Source: Candidatus Liptonbacteria bacterium (GTDB lineage: Bacteria > Patescibacteriota > Minisyncoccia > UBA6257 > 2-01-FULL-56-20). From it: a DNA stretch of 64,000 bases. Position 1 is the first letter of the stretch. The number at the start of each line of letters is the position of its first letter. Shown one piece after another: positions 7,192-63,785 of the stretch. The notes under the pieces were generated by a model that did no database searches, was not told where the DNA came from, and saw nothing but the letters and a program-made list of their open reading frames with translations. The stretch covers positions 163 through 64,162 of the forward strand of contig JAHFLL010000001.1 of the NCBI GenBank assembly GCA_023244895.1. The letters are read 5' to 3'. The position numbers and the translations under genes were made by a program.

Positions 7192-8721
7192 TTATTCTTC
7201 TCGTAAACGATAACTAAACGCTTCTGCCAAGTGTCCCGCGGAGACTTTTTCTTTTTCTTCCAGGTCCGCGATGGTTTGCGCAGTTTTGAGTAAGCGATAA
7301 TATCCGCGCGGAGATAATTTCGCCTTAGCTAGATTATCCATAAACTTCTGCGCTTCTAATTCTAATTCGATTAATTCTTCGGCCTGGCGGGAACTCATTT
7401 CGGAGTTGGTGGAAATTTTTAATCCCTTTTTGTTAAACCTCTCGCGTTGTTTAGAGCGCGCCTTCTCCACTTTGTCTTTTATCCCCGGACTGGTTTTTTG
7501 CTCCTCCGGCTTTTTGCGTAGCTCATCGTATTCCACCCGCAGAACTTTAAGCTGTAAATCAATTCTATCCATAAGGGGCCCCGAAATCTTTTTCTGATAA
7601 CGCACTACTTCATACGCGGAACACTTGCACTCTTTTTCCGGGTCGTTGTAGTAGCCACAGGGACAGGGATTCATAGCGGTTATAAGTGAAAATTTGGCGG
7701 GCAGAATTAGTGTGCCCTTGGCGCGCGCGATATGTACTAGCCCGCTCTCCAATGGCTGTCTTAGAGATTCTAAAATATTTTTTGGAAACTCCGGCAGTTC
7801 GTCTAGAAACAGAACTCCCCTATGAGCCAAGCTTATCTCGCCCGGACGCGGCACATTGCCTCCACCCACGACAGATATTAAAGACGCGGTCTGGTGCGGC
7901 GCGCGGAATGGTCGTTCATTAATTAGTCCGCCGGGATTAAGTCCCGCGGCACTATATATTTTCGTAACCTCAATCGCCTCTTCTCGGTCCGGTGCGGGCA
8001 GTATGCCGATTAAGGCTTGTGCCAGCAGGCTTTTACCGACTCCGGGCGGCCCCACCATAATCAGATTGTGCCCGCCCGCCGCCGCGATGATGAGCGCGCG
8101 CTTAGCGTGCTCCTGCCCTTTAATCTCCGAAAAGTCCGGCGCGCCCCTGCTCTCTCCCATGGCCTGCGAGAACACGGCAGGCTCCATTCTAATTCTCCCT
8201 TCTAATTCGCTCATTATCTCGGCCAAATCTTTCACTCCAAAGATTTCTACCCCCTCCACTACTGCCGCCTCGTTCGCGTTTTCTACCGGCAGATAAATTT
8301 TTTTGAAACCGGAGTTCTTCGCCATCTGCGCAATGCTTAAAACTCCGTTTACGGGTCGCAATCTGCCGTCCAAAGATAACTCGCCTAAAAATATTTTGTC
8401 TTTAGTTTCAAATTCCGAGATTTGTTTGGTGACCAAGAGATATGCCACAGCAATCGCGAGGTCATATTGCGAGCCGGTCTTTTTCACGTCCGCGGGCGCG
8501 AGATTGACCGTTATCTTTCTATTCTCGCGAGTCGGTGGTTTTACGCCCGCGTTCTTGAGCGCGGAGTTCACTCTTTCCTTCGCTTCATTCAAAGCCTTAT
8601 CCGCGAGTCCAACTATATTAAAAGAATGAAGGCCGACGTTTAAGTCGACCTCCACCTCAATCGGTCTCGCATGAATTCCTTCCAGTTCCGCGGAATAAAC
8701 TCTAGCGATCGTCTTGGACAT
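7192..8721 (-). CDS. comM: YifB/ComM family Mg-chelatase-like AAA+ ATPase
   Basis: The 509-aa ORF starts MSKTIARVYSAELEGIHARPIEVEVDL.... The central AAA+ Walker A is GPPGVGKS, and a C-terminal ChlI-like region is present. Confidence 0.85.
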   Translation of the reverse strand: MSKTIARVYSAELEGIHARPIEVEVDLNVGLHSFNIVGLADKALNEAKERVNSALKNAGVKPPTRENRKITVNLAPADVKKTGSQYDLAIAVAYLLVTKQISEFETKDKIFLGELSLDGRLRPVNGVLSIAQMAKNSGFKKIYLPVENANEAAVVEGVEIFGVKDLAEIMSELEGRIRMEPAVFSQAMGESRGAPDFSEIKGQEHAKRALIIAAAGGHNLIMVGPPGVGKSLLAQALIGILPAPDREEAIEVTKIYSAAGLNPGGLINERPFRAPHQTASLISVVGGGNVPRPGEISLAHRGVLFLDELPEFPKNILESLRQPLESGLVHIARAKGTLILPAKFSLITAMNPCPCGYYNDPEKECKCSAYEVVRYQKKISGPLMDRIDLQLKVLRVEYDELRKKPEEQKTSPGIKDKVEKARSKQRERFNKKGLKISTNSEMSSRQAEELIELELEAQKFMDNLAKAKLSPRGYYRLLKTAQTIADLEEKEKVSAGHLAEAFSYRLREE

Positions 8722-9067: not shown

Positions 9068-9368
9068 AAATATTTATTATTGTATTTTTATTTATTAAAC
9101 CTCTATCGGAAAGCCTTGAAGTATTACCGAAGGATTTACTTAAGATTAAATGGTCTAGCAGGGTGGGTCAAGACGCGTAGCTGGAAATATGGAAATAAGC
9201 CGCCAAACAAAGGAGACCTCATAATTAATAGTATTCCGCTGTTGATAATTTTCCGTGCGATCAGCGAGACCATTTAATCTCTAATGGAAAAAGGCGGGAG
9301 TATGGGCTCAAAACCAACCAACTACTCCCCACAGAGGTCAAAATTCATAAAATAGGCTGCTTGGCGAC

Positions 9369-9441
9369 TTATCCCCATTCGGCAATTCGGCAAACGGGAC
9401 AACTGTGGATAACTTGTTGGATAACCCGGCAGTTATCCCCA
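9369..9441. promoter_or_regulatory. cluster of four DnaA-box-like 9-mers (TTATCCCCA x2, TGTGGATAA perfect, TTGGATAAC)
   Basis: I read these directly at 9369-9377, 9404-9412, 9417-9425 and 9433-9441. They sit inside an 860-bp ORF-free divergent intergenic region that also holds several ATTCGGCAAT/ATTGCCGAAT palindromes and an AT-rich stretch. Confidence 0.35.
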
Positions 9442-9545
9442 TGATTCGGCAATGCTATTCGGCAATTGCCGAATTAGACCATATAGAACTTGGCGATTGC
9501 CGAATTAGGCTAAAAACCCGGCAATTTATATATTTTGCCGGATTC

Positions 9546-9890
9546 TGACAAACATTTTTGTTTGTCAGAGCCTAAAAGCGCCATTTTTGACAAACAAAAG
9601 TGTTTGTCAGCGTAAAAAGTGTTTAGCGACAAACATTTTAGACAAAATGGGTCCGTAGCGGATGTTTAGCGACAAACATCCGCTATGTAGTGGTTGGTGA
9701 GATGTATCGGGAATATGATCGGTCTTTATCTGCAAAATAGCCTCTTGATATGTCTTCTGACTTAATTATCGCTGTCATAGGTGTTTGTCGCCAAACATAT
9801 TCAACAAATAAATTTAATGGTCGTATTTATTGTTTAGCGACAAACATTTTTAACGCGACAAGTGCGTTTTTTGTGTTTAGCGCTAAACAT
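9546..9890. repeat. array of at least 7 imperfect/perfect palindromes of type TGTTTAGCGACAAACA (TGTTT-N6-AAACA), operator-like
   Basis: Copies sit at about 9546, 9589, 9622, 9662 (extended palindrome GCGGATGTTTAGCGACAAACATCCGC), 9782, 9832 and 9873 (perfect TGTTTAGCGCTAAACA). Spacing is irregular at 32-120 bp. Confidence 0.6.
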
Positions 9891-9925
9891 CTGACACGCG
9901 ATTTAGTTTGTTTTAATATATAGTA

Positions 9926-10297
9926 ATGAGTAACTCGGAGGTAGGTAGGTTAGGCGAGGACCTGGCCTGCCGGTATCTAGAAAGGAATAGATATAGCGTA
10001 ATTGCCCGGAACTATCTTATTAAAAGAGTGGGGGAGCTGGATATTGTGGTTAAAGACAAATCCGGCATATTGGTCTTTGTGGAAGTCAAAACAATGTCCC
10101 CGGGGGAGCTAAAGCCCGAGGACCAATATTCTTTTGCGAAGAGAACTAAAATGACTCGCGCTTGCGAGGTTTTTCTGGCCAAGTATTCGGAATTAGTGAG
10201 CGATAGGGCGGGTTGGCGTATGGATTTAGTTGCAGTTGAGCTACCAGATCCAGAGGTCTCGGAGAAACCGAGAATCCGTCACTACCAGAACGTATAA
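9926..10297 (+). CDS. yraN: YraN/UPF0102 family endonuclease-like protein
   Basis: The 123-aa protein has GRLGEDLACRYLERNRYSVIARNY...DIVVKDKSGILVFVEVKT, the typical YraN core. Confidence 0.75.
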   Translation: MSNSEVGRLGEDLACRYLERNRYSVIARNYLIKRVGELDIVVKDKSGILVFVEVKTMSPGELKPEDQYSFAKRTKMTRACEVFLAKYSELVSDRAGWRMDLVAVELPDPEVSEKPRIRHYQNV

Positions 10298-16146: not shown

Positions 16147-16944
16147 TTAAACCTGGGATATAGTTTTATTCTTTATATCCATATCTAATCTTTTGGCTTC
16201 CGCCCAGGCCAGCTCGTAAATCTCTTTCATTGCCTCCGCTATTTCCTGACTTTCTATTATAATGCCCAACTTTTCCCGCCAGGAGGCAATCATAACCTTA
16301 TTGTCGTAGATATTTATCTCCGGAGAAAAATGGAACTTGTCCGCCGGCACCAAGGCCGTCTCGCGCGACTCATCCTTATCTTGACTGGCCCTTTCCATTC
16401 CCGCGGGATTGGCGGGAATTATGGCGCGAATTGAAATCCCCTTACCGGCCCGCCGTTTATAATATTGTGGGAAGTAGTGTGGTAGAGCTCCATGCATGTC
16501 CTCTATGCTCGCGAAAGCCCTTATCGACTCGCGTGATGTTAGAGTGTCTTCATAAACTTCTTCCATCCCCTCTGTGCCCTCATGGAAGATAACTCTCGGC
16601 CTGGCCCCTTTCTGATAGATGGACTTAAGCTCGGGTACTAATTTTTGGGCGATAGACATGTGTTCTTGACCGCGAGCAACCTCATCTTGAAGAAGCTTGA
16701 GTATCTTTTCGGGGTCCTCGGCGGTGTATTGCTGTTTAGGTTTCTTGCCCGAGACAGAAATCATTTCTCGTGCGACCAAGTTGTCTAAAATACTGTATCC
16801 AGTGGTGCGATTAATTCCCGCCTTGCGGGTGATTTCAGTTACCGTGCCCTGACCCATCTCTAGAATCGCCAGATAGACCATGGCCATTCTAGCCTGGAGA
16901 CCAAGCGAGATGAGTTGTTTTTGAAGGGGGGATTCTTGGGCCAT
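16147..16944 (-). CDS. TrmB-family transcriptional regulator (N-terminal winged HTH plus sugar-binding-like C-terminal domain)
   Basis: The 265-aa protein has an N-terminal LAILEMGQGTVTEITRKAGINRTTGYSILDNLV helix-turn-helix typical of TrmB. Confidence 0.6.
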   Translation of the reverse strand: MAQESPLQKQLISLGLQARMAMVYLAILEMGQGTVTEITRKAGINRTTGYSILDNLVAREMISVSGKKPKQQYTAEDPEKILKLLQDEVARGQEHMSIAQKLVPELKSIYQKGARPRVIFHEGTEGMEEVYEDTLTSRESIRAFASIEDMHGALPHYFPQYYKRRAGKGISIRAIIPANPAGMERASQDKDESRETALVPADKFHFSPEINIYDNKVMIASWREKLGIIIESQEIAEAMKEIYELAWAEAKRLDMDIKNKTISQV

Positions 16945-24787: not shown

Positions 24788-24840
24788 TGTAGCGACAAAC
24801 ATCTGATAAACAGATTTGTTTGGCGACAAACAAAAAACAT
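24788..24840. repeat. second locus of the GCGACAAACA / TGTTTGGCGACAAACA operator-like palindrome
   Basis: tgtagcgacaaacatctgataaacagatttgtttggcgacaaaca lies immediately upstream of the MFS transporter gene. Confidence 0.5.
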
Positions 24841-24857
24841 GATTATATAAGTAGGTT

Positions 24858-26054
24858 ATGTCTTTTAGCCTGCTTCAGAAAATTCGGGCCAAGCCAGTCC
24901 GAACATATTACGCGTTCAGCTTCTTTAGGGAGTTTATGCTATTCTCCGGTGTTTTAGTGCCGTTTTTTACTGATTGGGGTCACATAAGCCAGGGGCAGAT
25001 ACAGCTTTTGCAGTCCTGGTTTATGCTCTGGATATTCATTTTGGAGGTGCCTACTGGCGCGATAGCAGATTATCTGGGGCGGAAAAACTCCATACTTATG
25101 GGAATCATAGTGGATATAATCGGCGTACTAGTCTATGTTTCCGCGCCCCAGTTTGGAATTTTCTTGCTGGGCGAATTTCTGATGGCGGTCGCAGTCGCGC
25201 TTATCTCCGGTGCCGACCAGGCCTTAATATACGACACCGCCAAGGAGGCCGGGCTGGAAGCTGAAAGTAAAAAAATATTTGGCCGGGCCCACTCTTTTAA
25301 GCTGGCGGGCATGCTTATCGCCGCGCCTATTGGCAGTATCGCCGCTCAGTATCTGGGTATGTCGGCGCCAATGTACCTGTCCTCCATACCCTTATTCTTC
25401 GCGGCTCTTTGCATTTGGCTTATGCCGGAGCCGAAGAAGACAGAACAGGAATCCGAGAGTAGGAGATATCTGGAAGTTGTGAAGAAGGGGGCGCTTTATT
25501 TTCATCGCCATCCTACCTTGAAATTTATAGCCATAGACGCAATGGCAATTGCTTCTATCGGTTATTTCATCATTTGGCTCTACCAGCCTACCGCCCTATC
25601 GGTTGGAATTCCGCTTTTATATCTTGGAGTAATCCATTCCGTTTTTGTCTTGGCTGAAATCTTTATCTCCAGTAACTTCTCCCGCTTGGAGAAAATATTC
25701 GGGTCTAGTTTTAACTATCTGCGCTTCTCCGCGATTATAACGGGGGCGATGTTTCTTATGGTCGCGATTTGGCCGAGTAAAATATCCGTAATTGCACTCG
25801 TCATAGTAGCGGGCTCCCTAAGCTTAACTCGCCTAGAGTTCATTTCCTCACATATGAATAAGCTGATACCATCCACGGAACGCGCCACAGTTCTTTCCGC
25901 CATATCTATGTTGCGCAGGATCGCGCTCGTAGTACTAAACCCGATCATAGGGTTTATGGCAGACAACTCTCTCGCTTTAACGCTTGGCGTCCTGGGTGGC
26001 CTGGCAATCCTTGCCACCTTTTTCTCCCCGCTCAAACGGGAGATGTTGGATTAG
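24858..26054 (+). CDS. MFS transporter
   Basis: The 398-aa protein has 12 predicted TM helices and an MFS-type D-R/K-x-G-R loop (ADYLGRKN). Confidence 0.8.
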   Translation: MSFSLLQKIRAKPVRTYYAFSFFREFMLFSGVLVPFFTDWGHISQGQIQLLQSWFMLWIFILEVPTGAIADYLGRKNSILMGIIVDIIGVLVYVSAPQFGIFLLGEFLMAVAVALISGADQALIYDTAKEAGLEAESKKIFGRAHSFKLAGMLIAAPIGSIAAQYLGMSAPMYLSSIPLFFAALCIWLMPEPKKTEQESESRRYLEVVKKGALYFHRHPTLKFIAIDAMAIASIGYFIIWLYQPTALSVGIPLLYLGVIHSVFVLAEIFISSNFSRLEKIFGSSFNYLRFSAIITGAMFLMVAIWPSKISVIALVIVAGSLSLTRLEFISSHMNKLIPSTERATVLSAISMLRRIALVVLNPIIGFMADNSLALTLGVLGGLAILATFFSPLKREMLD

Positions 26055-27759: not shown

Positions 27760-27833
27760 GCGCATGTAGCTCAATTGGTTAGAGCCCCAAGCTTATACCT
27801 TGGTGGTTCCAGGTTCGAGTCCTGGCATGCGCA
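27760..27833 (+). tRNA. tRNA-Ile (anticodon UAU)
   Basis: The acceptor stem is GCGCATG/CATGCGC, the D-stem GCTC/GAGC and the anticodon stem CCAAG/CTTGG. The anticodon loop CTTATAC gives anticodon TAT, and the T-arm is CCAGG-TTCGAGT-CCTGG. No CCA is encoded. Confidence 0.85.
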
Positions 27834-27835
27834 CA

Positions 27836-34547: not shown

Positions 34548-34590
34548 TGCCCAGCTGCAGAGGACGTGTTGTCGTTCTGCAGCTGGACGG
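34548..34590 (-). terminator. hairpin terminator downstream of minus-strand GC-island gene
   Basis: The hairpin is CCAGCTGCAGAGGACGtgttgTCGTTCTGCAGCTGG, followed on the minus strand by a T-run. Confidence 0.45.
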
Positions 34591-34634
34591 GTTCTTCCGA
34601 GCTAACTACCGGCTCGGTTCGGTTTCGTCCGCGG

Positions 34635-35777
34635 TTAGTTCCCGCGGCGAGGGAGGTCTTCCGCCGGGGCCGCCGGGGCCGCGGGCGGTTCGGCCGGAGG
34701 CTGTGCCTGGGCAGCCGCCTCTTCCGCTTCGGCTTGCCGCCGAAGCTCTTCAACTGGGTCGCCCTCCGGCCCGGCGATCGTCGCGGGCGCCGCGGGCGTC
34801 GCGGGCGCCGAGTCGGGTCCGCCGAGGAGGCTCCGGACGTCCGGCGTCTGGGGCGTCGGGGCCACGGGCTGACGCGCCTTCCGGTAGAGCCAGGCGCATC
34901 CGACGAGCGCGACGAGGAGGAGGGCCAAGAAGATGTACCGCCACATGCTGGCGGAATCACGAGCGGCCTGGACATTCCCGACCTCCACGATGGAAGATTC
35001 GAGAACGACATCAGCATCCTTCGCCTTGCCGTCCTTGTCCTTCTCTGTCACGCCCAGCTTGAGAGCCAGGCGGTGGATGCCGGCGGTGAGCTTGTCGAGC
35101 AAGCTCCCGAGTTCCAGCGCCTTCTTCTCGGCCCTCTCCTTGTCGTTCTTGAGGGTCTCGCTCTTGGCTGCCACGGCGTCGATTGCATCCACGAGCGACG
35201 TGTCCTTGTCGACCTTGGCCCCCACCACCTCCGCAGCCTTCTTGGCGGCGACGGTGGCGTCCGCGATGATCTTGTCGCGCTTGGCGATGCCGCTGCGCAG
35301 TCCTGCGCGGTCGCGCTCGGCCCGATGCTGATAGGCCGAGAGAGCAGCCATCACCTCGTCGGCGTTGGCGGGCGCCTGGGCGCCACAGGTCGTCGGAACG
35401 TCGATGTTGATCGGCGTACGGACAATGGCGTCCGCGTCCAGTTTCGCGACGCGGAGCGCCGACGAGAGCCACGACGGGTGGCATTTGGCGGCTGTCAGCG
35501 CCTGATAGACGCGGAGTTCGGCGTTGCCGACCTTCACGACGATGCGTGTGCTTCCCGTCGCCGTCGCCGGGATGATCACGGGGGTCGGCGCCGTCGCCGA
35601 CGAGGTCGTGGTCATCTGCGAGGCTGCCTTGGGGGCATCCTGGTCGCAGGCCACCGTGAGCATGATCGGCTGGCCGCACTTGGCCTTGATCGTCGAAGCG
35701 TCCTGCGCGACCACGGGGGTGGCGCAGAGAGCGAGAACGCAGAGAGCGAGAACGCAGAGAGCGAGCTTCTTCGCCAT
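34635..35777 (-). CDS. secreted/membrane-anchored coiled-coil protein on high-GC island (Pro/Ala-rich C-terminal tail)
   Basis: The signal peptide is MAKKLALCVLALCVLALCATPVVAQ. A long helical Lys/Ala/Asp-rich region, a C-terminal TM helix (WRYIFLALLLVALVGCAWLY) and a PAAPA-rich tail follow. Local GC is about 66-70%, so several overlapping ORFs on both strands are spurious. Confidence 0.5.
   Translation of the reverse strand: MAKKLALCVLALCVLALCATPVVAQDASTIKAKCGQPIMLTVACDQDAPKAASQMTTTSSATAPTPVIIPATATGSTRIVVKVGNAELRVYQALTAAKCHPSWLSSALRVAKLDADAIVRTPINIDVPTTCGAQAPANADEVMAALSAYQHRAERDRAGLRSGIAKRDKIIADATVAAKKAAEVVGAKVDKDTSLVDAIDAVAAKSETLKNDKERAEKKALELGSLLDKLTAGIHRLALKLGVTEKDKDGKAKDADVVLESSIVEVGNVQAARDSASMWRYIFLALLLVALVGCAWLYRKARQPVAPTPQTPDVRSLLGGPDSAPATPAAPATIAGPEGDPVEELRRQAEAEEAAAQAQPPAEPPAAPAAPAEDLPRRGN
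35724..35765. repeat. 15-bp tandem repeat x2.8 (gcagagagcgagaac) encoding ALCVL repeats in the signal peptide
   Basis: I read the repeat directly from the sequence. Confidence 0.8.
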
Positions 35778-36015
35778 GGTGTCTAGGGGTCCTTGGCCCC
35801 ATGCCTAGTAGTTGAAGGAGAGCTAGGCCTCTCCGTAGATTGTGGGGTGCTGGATGGGGGCGGAAATGCCACCTTCCATACCTAATATTGTACCTTATTT
35901 TGCATAAAATGTCAATATGTATTATAGTATGGTTGATTAGCCTTATAAACTAAGGTAAAATCACCCTACTAAACGGTTCTAGCCATGTTTTACGGAGCCG
36001 GATAGTAAATGTAAC

Positions 36016-60707: not shown

Positions 60708-61424
60708 ATGAATATCTATAAAAAGTACTTATTGGGCCTGGCTCTTTCCTTGTTTGTGTTTTTAGCCCTGTCCTCTTTCGCGTCGGCTCAAACTTCAAAT
60801 GTCGAGTTCCCGTATTGGCCGGACAAAACCACGCCGCTTCTTTCCTGCTCGGGCGACTACACTAATCCCTCCTCAACCCAGTGTAGAAGCTTGTGTGATG
60901 TTATTTCTACTTTTCAGCGCATTCTCTATTTCATTATGACCCTGATTCTTTTTGTCGGGGCGCCAATTATGTTTATCTTGGGCGGAGGAATGATTTTTTT
61001 CGCGGGCACCAATCCGTCTCTGCTAGAGCAGGGCAAAAAGGTTATATGGGGCGCGGTTATCGGCGTAGTCTTAGCTTTATCCGCCTATATTATAGTCGGC
61101 ACATTTCTATGGCTAATCGGTAATCCTGAGGCAGGTAAAAAAGATGCGCAAGGCAATAGCGTTCAAAGGGTTAGTTGGCCCGATATTTCCTGTGATCCCG
61201 CGGCTATTTTTGGCGGTCAATTGGAGCTTTGGAAGGGAAATGCCACTGCTGGCCCGGTGCCCAACAGGAGTACTGATGGAGGAGGGGGCAAGGGTTCGCC
61301 AACTTGGAGCGGATGCAAGGGGTTCTTTACTGTGGGGTGTCATTTTGGGACCACACTGTGCGAGGGAAAAACATGTGAGTGTGTTACCGGCGCTACTGCC
61401 GCAGAGTGTAAAAGCAAACAGTAA
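60708..61424 (+). CDS. TrbC/VirB2-like (T4SS-pilin-type) protein with Cys-rich C-terminal domain
   Basis: It has a signal peptide, two TM helices and the conserved FFAGTNPSLLEQGKKVIWGAVIGVVLAL turn motif. Paralogs downstream share the xAGDPEK/AGNPG motif. Confidence 0.6.
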   Translation: MNIYKKYLLGLALSLFVFLALSSFASAQTSNVEFPYWPDKTTPLLSCSGDYTNPSSTQCRSLCDVISTFQRILYFIMTLILFVGAPIMFILGGGMIFFAGTNPSLLEQGKKVIWGAVIGVVLALSAYIIVGTFLWLIGNPEAGKKDAQGNSVQRVSWPDISCDPAAIFGGQLELWKGNATAGPVPNRSTDGGGGKGSPTWSGCKGFFTVGCHFGTTLCEGKTCECVTGATAAECKSKQ

Positions 61425-61478
61425 AATATCTTGTTTGGAAGAGCTGGTAAGCATTCTGGCATAATCAATTTTTGAACA

Positions 61479-62345
61479 ATGCAAAGAGCATTAACAATTT
61501 CACTAGCCTTGCTTCTGTTACCGCTTTTAGTTTTAGCTGCTAATACTCCCGCCCCCGTCGGCGGTCCCTCTTTCACGTCTACCCCTAAGTCTCTCCAGAC
61601 AGTCATTCAGAATATATTCAATCTAGCCCTTCTGGTCTCGGGCATCTTAGCGTTTGGAGCGGTTATCTATGGTGCTTTTATGTATACCTTCAGTGCGGGT
61701 AACCCAGGCATGCAATCTGATGCCCGAGACCAGATTCTACAAGCCTTCTTGGGTCTAGCCCTCCTTCTGGGAGGATATCTGGTCTTAAACCTCATTAACC
61801 CCAACCTGACCAATATGACTCTAAGCCCCCTGCCTGCGGTGGAGGCGCCGAAGAGTCCCTACAATCCCAGATATTTAGTAGGCAACTGTAGTCTATTGAC
61901 CTCTCCCTGGGGTGACCCCGACTCCCTGAGGCCGTATTTTGGAGTCAACGCAGAGATGGCTTCCCGCATAGTGAACCAGGAGAGCGGTAATCGTCCATTC
62001 GCGGAGAGTAGCATGGATAAGTGCAAAGATGGTAATAAGTTTTCCATGGGCTTATTCCAGATTAATATAATCGCTCATGGAGGAAATCTCGGGTGCGAAG
62101 CAGGCATCTTTGAGACTAACGGAGGGGGCACTCAGGGAAACTGTTTGCGTAGAAATCCAGTCAAGAAATATTGCGAAGAATGGGATTGCAAGGTTGTAGC
62201 CGGCAAAGAGGCTGCCTATAATAGCTGTAAGGCGATAGCAAAGGATCCCCAAAGAAACATAGAGTATGCCTCTAGAATATCCAACAAGGGGGCGAACTGG
62301 GGTCCTTGGCAATATACCTATGACTTATGCAAGGGCGCGCAATAG
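61479..62345 (+). CDS. pilin-like N-terminal domain fused to lytic transglycosylase (SLT/VirB1-like) domain
   Basis: The N-terminal part has a signal peptide and a TM hairpin with FSAGNPGMQSDARDQILQAFLGLALLL. The C-terminal part has the SLT motifs QES...SMGLFQIN and AAYNS. Confidence 0.6.
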   Translation: MQRALTISLALLLLPLLVLAANTPAPVGGPSFTSTPKSLQTVIQNIFNLALLVSGILAFGAVIYGAFMYTFSAGNPGMQSDARDQILQAFLGLALLLGGYLVLNLINPNLTNMTLSPLPAVEAPKSPYNPRYLVGNCSLLTSPWGDPDSLRPYFGVNAEMASRIVNQESGNRPFAESSMDKCKDGNKFSMGLFQINIIAHGGNLGCEAGIFETNGGGTQGNCLRRNPVKKYCEEWDCKVVAGKEAAYNSCKAIAKDPQRNIEYASRISNKGANWGPWQYTYDLCKGAQ

Positions 62346-62357
62346 AAATATAAAAAA

Positions 62358-62855
62358 GTGAAAAAAACAATTATCGGGACAATAATATTAATAATACTCG
62401 GCGCCATAGTCTGGGGTATCATTTCGTATCTGGGTGGTGCCGGCGGGGACGGGTCCGGGGCGGGCGGGGGCGGGAGTCTGCCGCCAATAGTTTTACCTCG
62501 GGTAGAAACTAGCACTTTACCAGTCAGCGACAAAATAGTTGTAGATACCCCTACAGGGGGAGTGGAAATGAATAATTTTTATAAGACCGCTAAAGAAGTA
62601 AATAGCGAGAGAGATGTTCTGGTTCAAAAGGATAACAGATTTGATGTGACCTATATATCTTCCGGAGGCAACTTTATAATAGGGATATTACAAGAGCCCA
62701 TTGAAGAAAATCGTTTAGTAGCGGAGCGTGCGTTTTTGTCCGGGCTTGGGATATCTGAAGCGCAGGCCTGCCGGCTGACGGTATGGGTGGGTGTTCCGAG
62801 AGAGGTAAGCGAAGCATATTCTGGTCGCAATCTTGGTCTAAGTTTCTGTAGATAG
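62358..62855 (+). CDS. hypothetical membrane-anchored protein with Gly-rich linker
   Basis: The 165-aa ORF has an N-terminal TM helix and a GGAGGDGSGAGGGGS linker. Confidence 0.45.
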   Translation: MKKTIIGTIILIILGAIVWGIISYLGGAGGDGSGAGGGGSLPPIVLPRVETSTLPVSDKIVVDTPTGGVEMNNFYKTAKEVNSERDVLVQKDNRFDVTYISSGGNFIIGILQEPIEENRLVAERAFLSGLGISEAQACRLTVWVGVPREVSEAYSGRNLGLSFCR

Positions 62856-62895
62856 CCTATCCGCGCCATGCTTTATCAACTATTAGCCATAAATT

Positions 62896-63339
62896 ATGAG
62901 TTGTCTGGGACGGGTTGATTTTGCTATAATATATCCAATGAAAAAAGTAGTGTTTATGGTGGCTTTTGCGGCTTGGGCCATGTTGCTATTGGGGGCGCTT
63001 ATATCTCCAGTGTTAGTTTCGGGAGCGGACAACGAAGGTCCTGGTGGTAACTCCACTACTACTGTTATCAAATTTCCGAACCCCTTGGGCAACTGCGCGC
63101 CGACGGGCAACCAGTTGCAGTGTGTTATCTATCTGATAATAGACAAGCTGATACTGCTTTCCATACCCATAGTAAGCGCGCTGGTTATATTCGCGGCCTA
63201 TCAGATTATGACTTCCGCTGGCGACCCCGAGAAATTCAAAACCGGAACGAAAACCTTGCTTTATACGGCAATAGGATTTGCCATAATCCTTGCTTCCAAA
63301 GGGGTTGCCCTACTCTTACAGGACATACTAAAGAGTTAG
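62896..63339 (+). CDS. TrbC/VirB2-like (T4SS-pilin-type) protein
   Basis: IFAAYQIMTSAGDPEKFKTGTKTLLYTAIGFAIILA is the family motif, and there is a signal peptide. Confidence 0.6.
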   Translation: MSCLGRVDFAIIYPMKKVVFMVAFAAWAMLLLGALISPVLVSGADNEGPGGNSTTTVIKFPNPLGNCAPTGNQLQCVIYLIIDKLILLSIPIVSALVIFAAYQIMTSAGDPEKFKTGTKTLLYTAIGFAIILASKGVALLLQDILKS

Positions 63340-63428
63340 TTGTGTTATATAATTAAAACTGATAATATCGCTGAGTAGAGATAGATTGAAAGAAAGGTCG
63401 AGCAAATATCTAAATATATCTAAATAGG

Positions 63429-63785
63429 ATGAGTAAAGCAGTAAAACTAACTTTAATCGCGCAGTTTCTACCGTTGTTGGCCTTCGCGCAACAGCAGACG
63501 CCTGGCGTAGACGTTTCTACTTTCGCCCGGTTAATTCAAGTGATTTGTACTTTAGTTGGTTACGCGTTCGCGCTATTAATTGTGTTGGCTGTTATATTTG
63601 TGATTTATGCTGCCTTCTTATATCTGACCGCCGCTGGCGACCCAGAGAAAGTTAAGAAAGCAAACTCCACAATTCTGTACGCCGCAATTGCCGTAGCCGT
63701 AGCGCTTCTGGCTAAGTCTATGCCGTTCTTGGTTGCCTCTATTCTTCAGGTCAATATCGGTACTGGAAACACCTGCGGAACATAG
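63429..63785 (+). CDS. TrbC/VirB2-like (T4SS-pilin-type) protein
   Basis: It has a signal peptide and AAFLYLTAAGDPEKVKKANSTILYAAIAVAVALLA. Confidence 0.65.
   Translation: MSKAVKLTLIAQFLPLLAFAQQQTPGVDVSTFARLIQVICTLVGYAFALLIVLAVIFVIYAAFLYLTAAGDPEKVKKANSTILYAAIAVAVALLAKSMPFLVASILQVNIGTGNTCGT

Follow-up and report, generated by a model that had tools for sequence, protein, structure and literature searches.

Why does a single intergenic gap in a Candidatus Liptonbacteria bacterium hold a crowd of short palindromes, and what kind of protein would bind them? The window analysed here is the whole stretch of 64,000 nucleotides, and the gap of about 858 bp lies between the dksA-like and comM genes on the left and yraN on the right (Table 1). 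A sequence-only reading of this DNA had described a dense array of at least seven operator-like palindromes. The description holds. Five palindromes of the form TGTTTnnCGnnAAACA and two 22-bp everted palindromes, TGACAAACA-N4-TGTTTGTCA, are present at 9546-9889, and both kinds are built from a common half-site, which occurs 14 times in the 344 bp of the main array. The window has six exact TGTTT-N6-AAACA sites; 100 dinucleotide-preserving shuffles give an expectation of 0.05, and none of them reached six. The centre-to-centre spacings of the main array are 42, 28, 43, 119, 49 and 43 bp. The array had been distinguished from CRISPR, and we agree; the spacing ranges from 28 to 119 bp, and the repeats are 16 bp long and vary in sequence. 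Two positions are corrected. The perfect palindrome starts one base after 9873, where it had been placed, and the long palindrome given as 9656-9681 does exist but extends further, the quoted 26-mer being 9658-9683.

A second locus had been noticed at 24788-24840, and it is real. It is a composite mini-array that fills the 72-bp intergenic gap between the NUDIX gene and the MFS transporter gene, the latter at 24858. Its larger part, GATAAACA-GATT-TGTTTGGCGACAAACA, is an everted element fused to a palindrome, and the exact TGTTT-N6-AAACA site is located at 24817-24832. The main array and this satellite are the only two motif-bearing loci in the 64 kb. In short form, the site pattern can be written TGTTTRKCGMYAAACA.

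Table 1. Coordinates of the array, its flanking genes and associated features (positions in the window unless a locus is named)
Feature	Position	Strand	Sequence or remark
comM/yifB	7192-8721	-	behind the dksA-like gene
DksA/TraR-type zinc-finger gene, 110 aa	8735-9067	-	conserved left neighbour; the L089 orthologue carries Pfam zf-dskA_traR
DnaA-box cluster	9369-9441		TTATCCCCA at 9369-9377 and 9433-9441; TGTGGATAA (= TTATCCACA, minus strand) at 9404-9412; weaker GTTATCCAA at 9417-9425
AATyCGGCAAw repeats, 8 copies	9377-9545	both	some palindromic, e.g. ATTCGGCAATTGCCGAAT; AT-rich stretch at 9523-9535
Everted palindrome 1	9546-9567		TGACAAACATTTTTGTTTGTCA = TGACAAACA-TTTT-TGTTTGTCA
Everted palindrome 2	9588-9609		TGACAAACAAAAGTGTTTGTCA = TGACAAACA-AAAG-TGTTTGTCA
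Palindrome	9620-9635		TGTTTAGCGACAAACA
Palindrome	9663-9678		TGTTTAGCGACAAACA; inside the 30-bp palindrome TAGCGGATGTTTAGCGACAAACATCCGCTA, 9656-9685
Palindrome	9782-9797		TGTTTGTCGCCAAACA
Palindrome	9831-9846		TGTTTAGCGACAAACA
Perfect palindrome	9874-9889		TGTTTAGCGCTAAACA; adjoins the promoter-like site for yraN, 9891-9919
yraN (UPF0102)	9926-10297	+	conserved right neighbour
Satellite mini-array	24794-24832		half-site GACAAACA at 24794-24801, then GATAAACA-GATT-TGTTTGGCGACAAACA at 24805-24832
LAGLIDADG genes	L015:4783-5262, L029:4659-5168		similar sequence in L002, L004, L018 and L043

Downstream of yraN stands a gene for a response regulator with a receiver domain only, followed by nusA, a gene for an H+-pyrophosphatase, and clpP. 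The window has four DnaA boxes at one mismatch or less, three of them within 73 bp, and the box cluster that had been noticed beside the array is real (Table 1). Some other features of the window were also recorded. Upstream of the dksA-like gene, the two arms of a 17-nt inverted repeat (9143-9159 and 9264-9280) are 94% complementary and 104 nt apart, and the box TTTACTTAAGATTA is present in the segment 9120-9285 as well as in two relatives (L002 and L011). The inverted repeat and the box could belong to a small RNA or a leader; the Rfam search gave no match to this segment. Farther away, a tRNA-Ile gene (anticodon UAU) is located at 27760-27834. The segment 34000-36000 is an island of 59% GC within the 47% GC window, with long overlapping ORFs at 34566-35786 (plus strand) and 34635-35777 (minus strand); a Pfam scan, of the plus strand alone, gave no match for the ORF 34566-35786. 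At 60708-63785, five small genes stand in a row behind a solute-binding protein gene, and four of the five match T4SS-pilin-like domains (PF18895), one of these together with a lysozyme-like domain.

The sequence-only reading had called a regulatory role unlikely if the motif were not enriched in intergenic regions genome-wide and not conserved in related genomes. For this comparison, 80 ComM-centred loci from different species were used, and motif densities in 26 orthologous gaps between yraN and the dksA-like gene (ComM 59-90% identical) were compared with about 330 kb of flanking DNA. The synteny nusA-yraN, gap, dksA-like-comM is kept in one large clade among the 80 loci, and the clade that carries the array is that of Liptonbacteria-like Patescibacteria within Paceibacteria. 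The source of the window is itself Liptonbacteria-like, as judged from its ComM relatives. The palindrome occurs at 3.64 per kb in the gaps and at 0.031 per kb in the flanking DNA, an enrichment of more than 100-fold. The motif is conserved, and the claim survives this comparison. The everted element, T-GAYAAACA-WWWW-TGTTTRTC-A, is found in 19 of the 26 orthologous regions, with a density of 1.15 per kb in the gaps against 0.012 per kb outside. For CGGCAA the corresponding values are 5.6 and 1.6 per kb. Essentially all 27 orthologous regions contain AATyCGGCAAw repeats; their number ranges from 2 to 9, both orientations occur, the copies are mostly separated by 8-13 bp, and they always lie between the dksA-like gene and the everted element. 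Perfect DnaA boxes, TTATCCACA, number 6 in the 27 regions against 0.23 expected from shuffles (about 26-fold), and boxes at one mismatch or less number 23 against 6.8.

The order of the modules is fixed. It runs from the dksA-like gene through the AATyCGGCAAw repeats, one or two everted elements and the palindromes to yraN, and DnaA boxes are interspersed, both among the AATyCGGCAAw repeats and beside and between the sites. Each gap has one to eight palindromes, about 35-65 bp apart, and their copy number and spacing differ among genomes. The window and its closest relative have identical motifs but diverged spacers. In L002, everted palindrome 2 is the same base for base, and the spacer between the two everted elements is diverged. 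Four relatives (L006, L011, L021 and L028) have one more perfect palindrome within the coding sequence of yraN, some 260 bp into the gene. As judged from these comparisons, the region is a conserved cis-acting element of the chromosome.

The sites have the consensus TGTTT-R-K-C-G-M-Y-AAACA. Although the search pattern leaves the central CG unconstrained, 97% of the sites have it. When the sites are anchored on one half-site and the CG, the partner half AAACA is recovered at 85-90% per position. The 8-bp half-site is used in three ways, namely convergent with no gap, divergent with a 4-bp gap, and direct with a 4-bp gap. At the variable positions, 28 sites are self-complementary against 34 expected, so that no excess is seen; REP-like or other structured hairpin repeats, which would be selected for base-pairing, were rejected on this result. 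An RNA gene was also rejected, as Rfam gives only sub-threshold miRNA-like hairpins, which are spurious, at the everted pair. A DNA-uptake sequence does not fit a motif confined to one locus. Since the array is conserved in synteny, the spacers are not conserved and hairpin complementarity is not selected, the palindromes are taken to be protein-binding dyads and not RNA, CRISPR or mobile repeats. The comparison shows predicted dyad-symmetric protein-binding sites under selection.

Selfish or structural repeats deserve a separate comment, because homing-endonuclease genes were found at this place. Free-standing single-motif LAGLIDADG genes, coding for proteins of 159-169 aa (YIRGLIDGEGCF), are inserted within the array region of six relatives. 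The insertions fall between the everted element and yraN, and those loci keep few palindromes. Single-motif LAGLIDADG enzymes act as homodimers, and their cleavage sites are pseudo-palindromes of about 22 bp. The palindromes, which are clustered, might then be recognition sites of such enzymes, or else REP/MITE-like hairpins. We regard this explanation as very improbable. The sites are kept at one syntenic position over deep divergence and are essentially absent from the flanking DNA, most array-bearing genomes, including the window, have no endonuclease gene there, and a scan of viral contigs gave no match to the variant array. A homing enzyme more likely exploits an existing functional site than creates an array, and the conserved dyads may be the homing target of the LAGLIDADG enzymes.

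A transcription factor is one candidate for the protein that binds the sites. The sequence-only reading had proposed sites of a dimeric HTH regulator, of which the dyad array for a binding protein is borne out and the operator regulon is not, as the sites are restricted to one locus and its satellite. In this reading, a dimeric factor with a CRP-, KorA- or LacI-like HTH would act as a repressor or activator on yraN, on the divergently oriented dksA-like and comM genes and on the MFS transporter gene. The last palindrome of the array does adjoin the promoter-like site of yraN, and the satellite does occupy the gap upstream of the transporter gene. Operators of the CRP/FNR type have the form TGTGA-N6-TCACA, that is, a 5-N6-5 layout with A/T flanks, and operators of the LacI family typically have CG at their centre. 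The array sites share the 5-N6-5 geometry and the A/T-rich flanks with the CRP/FNR operators. They differ from these in the invariant central CG, in up to eight tandem sites, some of them in coding sequence, and in the lack of a regulon-like spread. The operators of plasmid RK2 were also compared. The KorA operator OA, TGTTTAGCTAAACA, has the half-site TGTTTAG in common with the array motif, and the KorB operator OB, TTTAGCGGCTAAA, has the half-site TTTAGC in common with it; KorB is a ParB-family CTP clamp. The dyads of OA (14 bp) and OB (13 bp, odd) are shorter than the 16 bp of the array, and the array sites belong to neither. Moreover, OA and OB are dispersed single operators on plasmids, whereas the array is chromosomal and tandem.

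Several features of the array are unusual for a repressor, namely up to eight sites with everted elements over 350-600 bp and a fast turnover of copy number. Perfect sites within the yraN coding sequence also do not suit an operator, and none of the 27 loci has a regulator gene linked to the array. The TrmB-like gene at 16147-16944, which had been suggested as the binder, has no site nearby, and nothing ties it to the motif. Because the motif is restricted to one locus with a small satellite and sites lie inside yraN, an element of a centromere or an origin fits better than an operator regulon. On balance, we consider the operator explanation distinctly unlikely.

According to the geometric comparison, the closest match of the array motif is parS, the binding site of ParB, which had not been considered before. 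The array motif and canonical parS, TGTTTCACGTGAAACA, are alike in the length of 16 bp, the even dyad, the outer arms TGTTT/AAACA and the central CG. The difference is at positions 6-7 and their mirror positions, where the array has R-K (AG, GT, CG, GG or AT) instead of CA. Relative to tGTTnCACGTGAAACa, 12 of the 16 positions match, and CA/TG at positions 6-7 and 10-11 is seen in none of the 83-88 sites. The variant TGTTTCGCGCGAAACA of two loci (L017 and L020) matches at 14 of 16 positions and is one symmetric position off canonical parS. Canonical parS with two mismatches or less, members of the motif family aside, is absent from the window and the 80 related loci. By these sequence criteria, the array motif is a variant and not canonical parS.

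Metagenome contigs were scanned for two TGTTTnnCGnnAAACA sites 15-45 bp apart (31-61 bp start-to-start), and 120 loci were returned. Tandem arrays of canonical parS account for 118 of them, with spacings mostly of 35-49 bp, within the 31-61 bp that the scan permits. The other two loci, L103 and L145, both have the yraN/dksA-like/comM synteny. The motif variant thus seems specific to this lineage. The high share of canonical arrays indicates that dense tandem parS arrays are common, and the geometry of the present array fits this class. Canonical parS is similar also in that it forms tandem arrays in intergenic regions near DnaA boxes, with spacings mostly of 35-65 bp and with extra copies nearby and inside genes. 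It is known that parS sites can lie within genes, for example inside spo0J in B. subtilis. Of the 120 scan loci, 60 also encode ParB, in most cases together with ParA, within the stretch that was retrieved, and the array is then typically directly upstream of parA. The present array differs in that it is not adjacent to parAB. The everted element has no counterpart in the 118 canonical arrays, from which the CGGCAA repeats are likewise missing. One canonical array (L118:1044-2027, Ga0180436_10000184) is unusually dense, with 15 parS sites within 1 kb at 42-116 bp spacing on a contig of 35% GC, and parA/parB are not in its 14-kb locus.

The centromere of the F plasmid gives a second comparison. 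The sopC site consists of 12 tandem units of 43 bp, each with a 16-bp inverted repeat. The present array resembles it in the dense tandem dyads of 16 bp and in several spacings of 42-43 bp. Unlike sopC, it is chromosomal, syntenic and irregularly spaced, without an adjacent partition operon.

The location of the array relative to the replication origin was examined. The cumulative GC skew of the window has its minimum at 9.5 kb; the skew is dominated by the coding strand, and only a small replication component remains, which is about +0.026 for the right side and close to 0 for the left side. The genes point away from the gap, as 5 of 7 on the left are on the minus strand and 39 of 53 on the right are on the plus strand. 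An origin at this gap is plausible from these signals. The cluster of DnaA boxes, the AT-rich stretches, the bidirectional repeats, the skew minimum and the divergent genes resemble bacterial oriC and the origin of Peribacteria, another CPR lineage in which uncharacterized short repeats were described near the origin (PMC4736985). Unlike a typical oriC, the region has neither dnaA nor dnaN next to it, half of the orthologous gaps have no recognizable DnaA box, and repeats other than DnaA boxes predominate. The sequence-only reading had also suggested iteron-like repeats if an origin were present. Iterons of Rep-dependent replicons are direct repeats of some 17-22 bp, regularly spaced beside a rep gene. 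DnaA boxes do adjoin the array, but its repeats are irregularly spaced dyads and not direct repeats, with no rep gene in the neighbourhood, and they do not match such iterons; in a looser sense they may still be iteron-like. The half-site was also considered as a degenerate DnaA box and rejected, as only 6 of 9 positions match, the CACA core is missing and canonical boxes co-occur.

The whole region of three modules might then be the chromosomal origin, with the palindromes and everted elements binding a lineage-specific origin protein other than ParB, such as an accessory initiator or a regulator that works alongside DnaA. Analogous sites are the iterons and operators bound by plasmid Rep proteins, the sites of CtrA and the HP1021 boxes. 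The DnaA boxes beside and between the sites, the CGGCAA repeats at roughly helical-repeat spacing, and the skew minimum and switch of gene orientation that both fall at the gap would be expected of such an origin. Convergent, divergent and direct arrangements of one half-site are more typical of origin-binding proteins than of ParB, and the Peribacteria repeats give a parallel in another CPR lineage. Against this explanation, none of the 80 loci has dnaA or dnaN close to the region, a DnaA box within one mismatch is absent from about half of the 27 orthologous regions, and the replication-linked component of the skew is weak. No candidate protein is known, and we know of no origin-factor site that is as close as parS to a 16-bp dyad with a central CG. 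We judge a non-ParB origin factor to be unlikely, though by no means far-fetched.

A ParB that binds the array would probably be of altered specificity. According to a structure-function study of ParB and Noc, G1 of the half-site is read by R173, and residue 201 is opposite base pair 6; the study reports G201 as invariant among ParB orthologues and a change of residue 201 as one of the specificity switches (PMC7383237). Base pair 6 in that numbering corresponds to position 7 of the 16-mer here, where the motif has G or T instead of A. The 120 proteins closest to the ParB of L069 were collected, and these include ones named Paceibacterota, Wolfebacteria and Patescibacteria. All 120 of these closest Patescibacteria ParBs have S201, and 119 have Q202, within the local motif N-E-S-Q. 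R173 is kept in all 120, and the G at its base position is kept in the array motif. Among 45 ParBs encoded beside canonical parS arrays, G201 is found in 43, and H202 likewise in 43. The S201 signature spans the nearest 60 or so of 150 representative clusters (50% identity). S201 alone or Q202 alone also occurs in ParBs beside canonical parS; thus, the S201/Q202 signature is suggestive and not diagnostic. The co-variation of motif position 7 with ParB residue 201 is suggestive in the same sense, the ParBs compared being from genomes other than those proven to bear the array. A large clade of Patescibacteria ParBs (P0001-P0120 and P0121-P0178) carries S201 as xESQ or xESH.

ParB is widespread in related Paceibacteria, and the positions of its genes relative to the array were compared. 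The 64-kb window and the DNA up to 6 kb from each array encode no ParB, ParA, DnaA or DnaN. The ParB matches and the ComM matches in three homologue lists have no contig of equal length in common, and one near-match comes from different MAGs. According to tblastn searches with Spo0J and Soj, parAB is found only in L069 and L040, both of the sister clade that has no array. The ParB genes that can be placed belong to this Wolfebacteria-like sister clade or to unplaced lineages. In the Wolfebacteria-like clade (L069, L040, L051, L053 and L072), parA-parB-relA-topA-dprA stands upstream of the dksA-like and comM genes, 3-10 kb from them, and replaces the array and yraN-nusA. A parS of recognizable kind was not found at these five loci. 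Both the variant motif and canonical parS are absent within 10 kb of parB in L069, L083-L089 and L210-L220, and when the ParB-bearing clade was searched de novo for palindromes of a different family, nothing convincing emerged. A single palindrome in L040 (270-285), AATTTAGCGTTAAATT, has the core TTTAGCG of the motif with ATTT/AAAT arms and adjoins the start of parA at the contig end. At several loci (L083, L086, L210 and L213), parB stands behind a tRNA gene and the rpoBC-S6-SSB-S18 block, with no parA beside it.

In our preferred reading, the array would be a lineage-specific parS-type centromere at or beside oriC, bound by a ParB of altered specificity. We hold this reading tentatively, at somewhat under an even chance. 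ParB dimers would load at the variant sites as CTP-dependent clamps, and the array would build a complex for partition and SMC loading at the replication origin or close beside it. The sites inside yraN and the satellite, which is 15 kb distant, would be the usual scattered copies of parS near the origin. The replacement of CA by RK at positions 6-7 of the half-site would match the changes from G201 to S201 and from H202 to Q202 in Patescibacteria ParBs. The everted element and the CGGCAA repeats lie outside this model; they are probably bound by the same protein in another mode or by further origin proteins.

A fuller proposal joins the two functions. The region would be a combined origin and centromere of a large Patescibacteria clade, with an architecture not described before. 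Its TGTTTRKC half-sites would be read in three arrangements, either by a ParB whose specificity has switched (S201/Q202) or by a wholly new protein, and a second factor would read the phased AATyCGGCAAw repeats. We regard this proposal as doubtful, with a minor share of the probability. DNA probes for ParB binding could be taken from the array, namely TGTTTAGCGCTAAACA and also TGTTTGTCGACAAACA, and compared with canonical parS, TGTTTCACGTGAAACA. If S201/Q202 ParBs bind the array, this would be natural co-evolution of ParB and parS at the residue and base pair that laboratory evolution found to determine specificity (PMC7383237). If they do not bind, the array points to another origin-binding protein.

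Full-text literature searches turned up no paper that treats parS or ParB in Patescibacteria, nor any in which these sequences appear. To our knowledge, almost nothing is known about the replication and segregation of chromosomes in Patescibacteria (CPR). The array is an easily recognized landmark for mapping origins and centromeres in hundreds of uncultured genomes. If the combined proposal is true, it would be a second natural case, beside Noc, of specificity switching in the ParB family, and replication and segregation in these ultra-small episymbionts would be organized by cis elements and specificities for which model bacteria offer no example.
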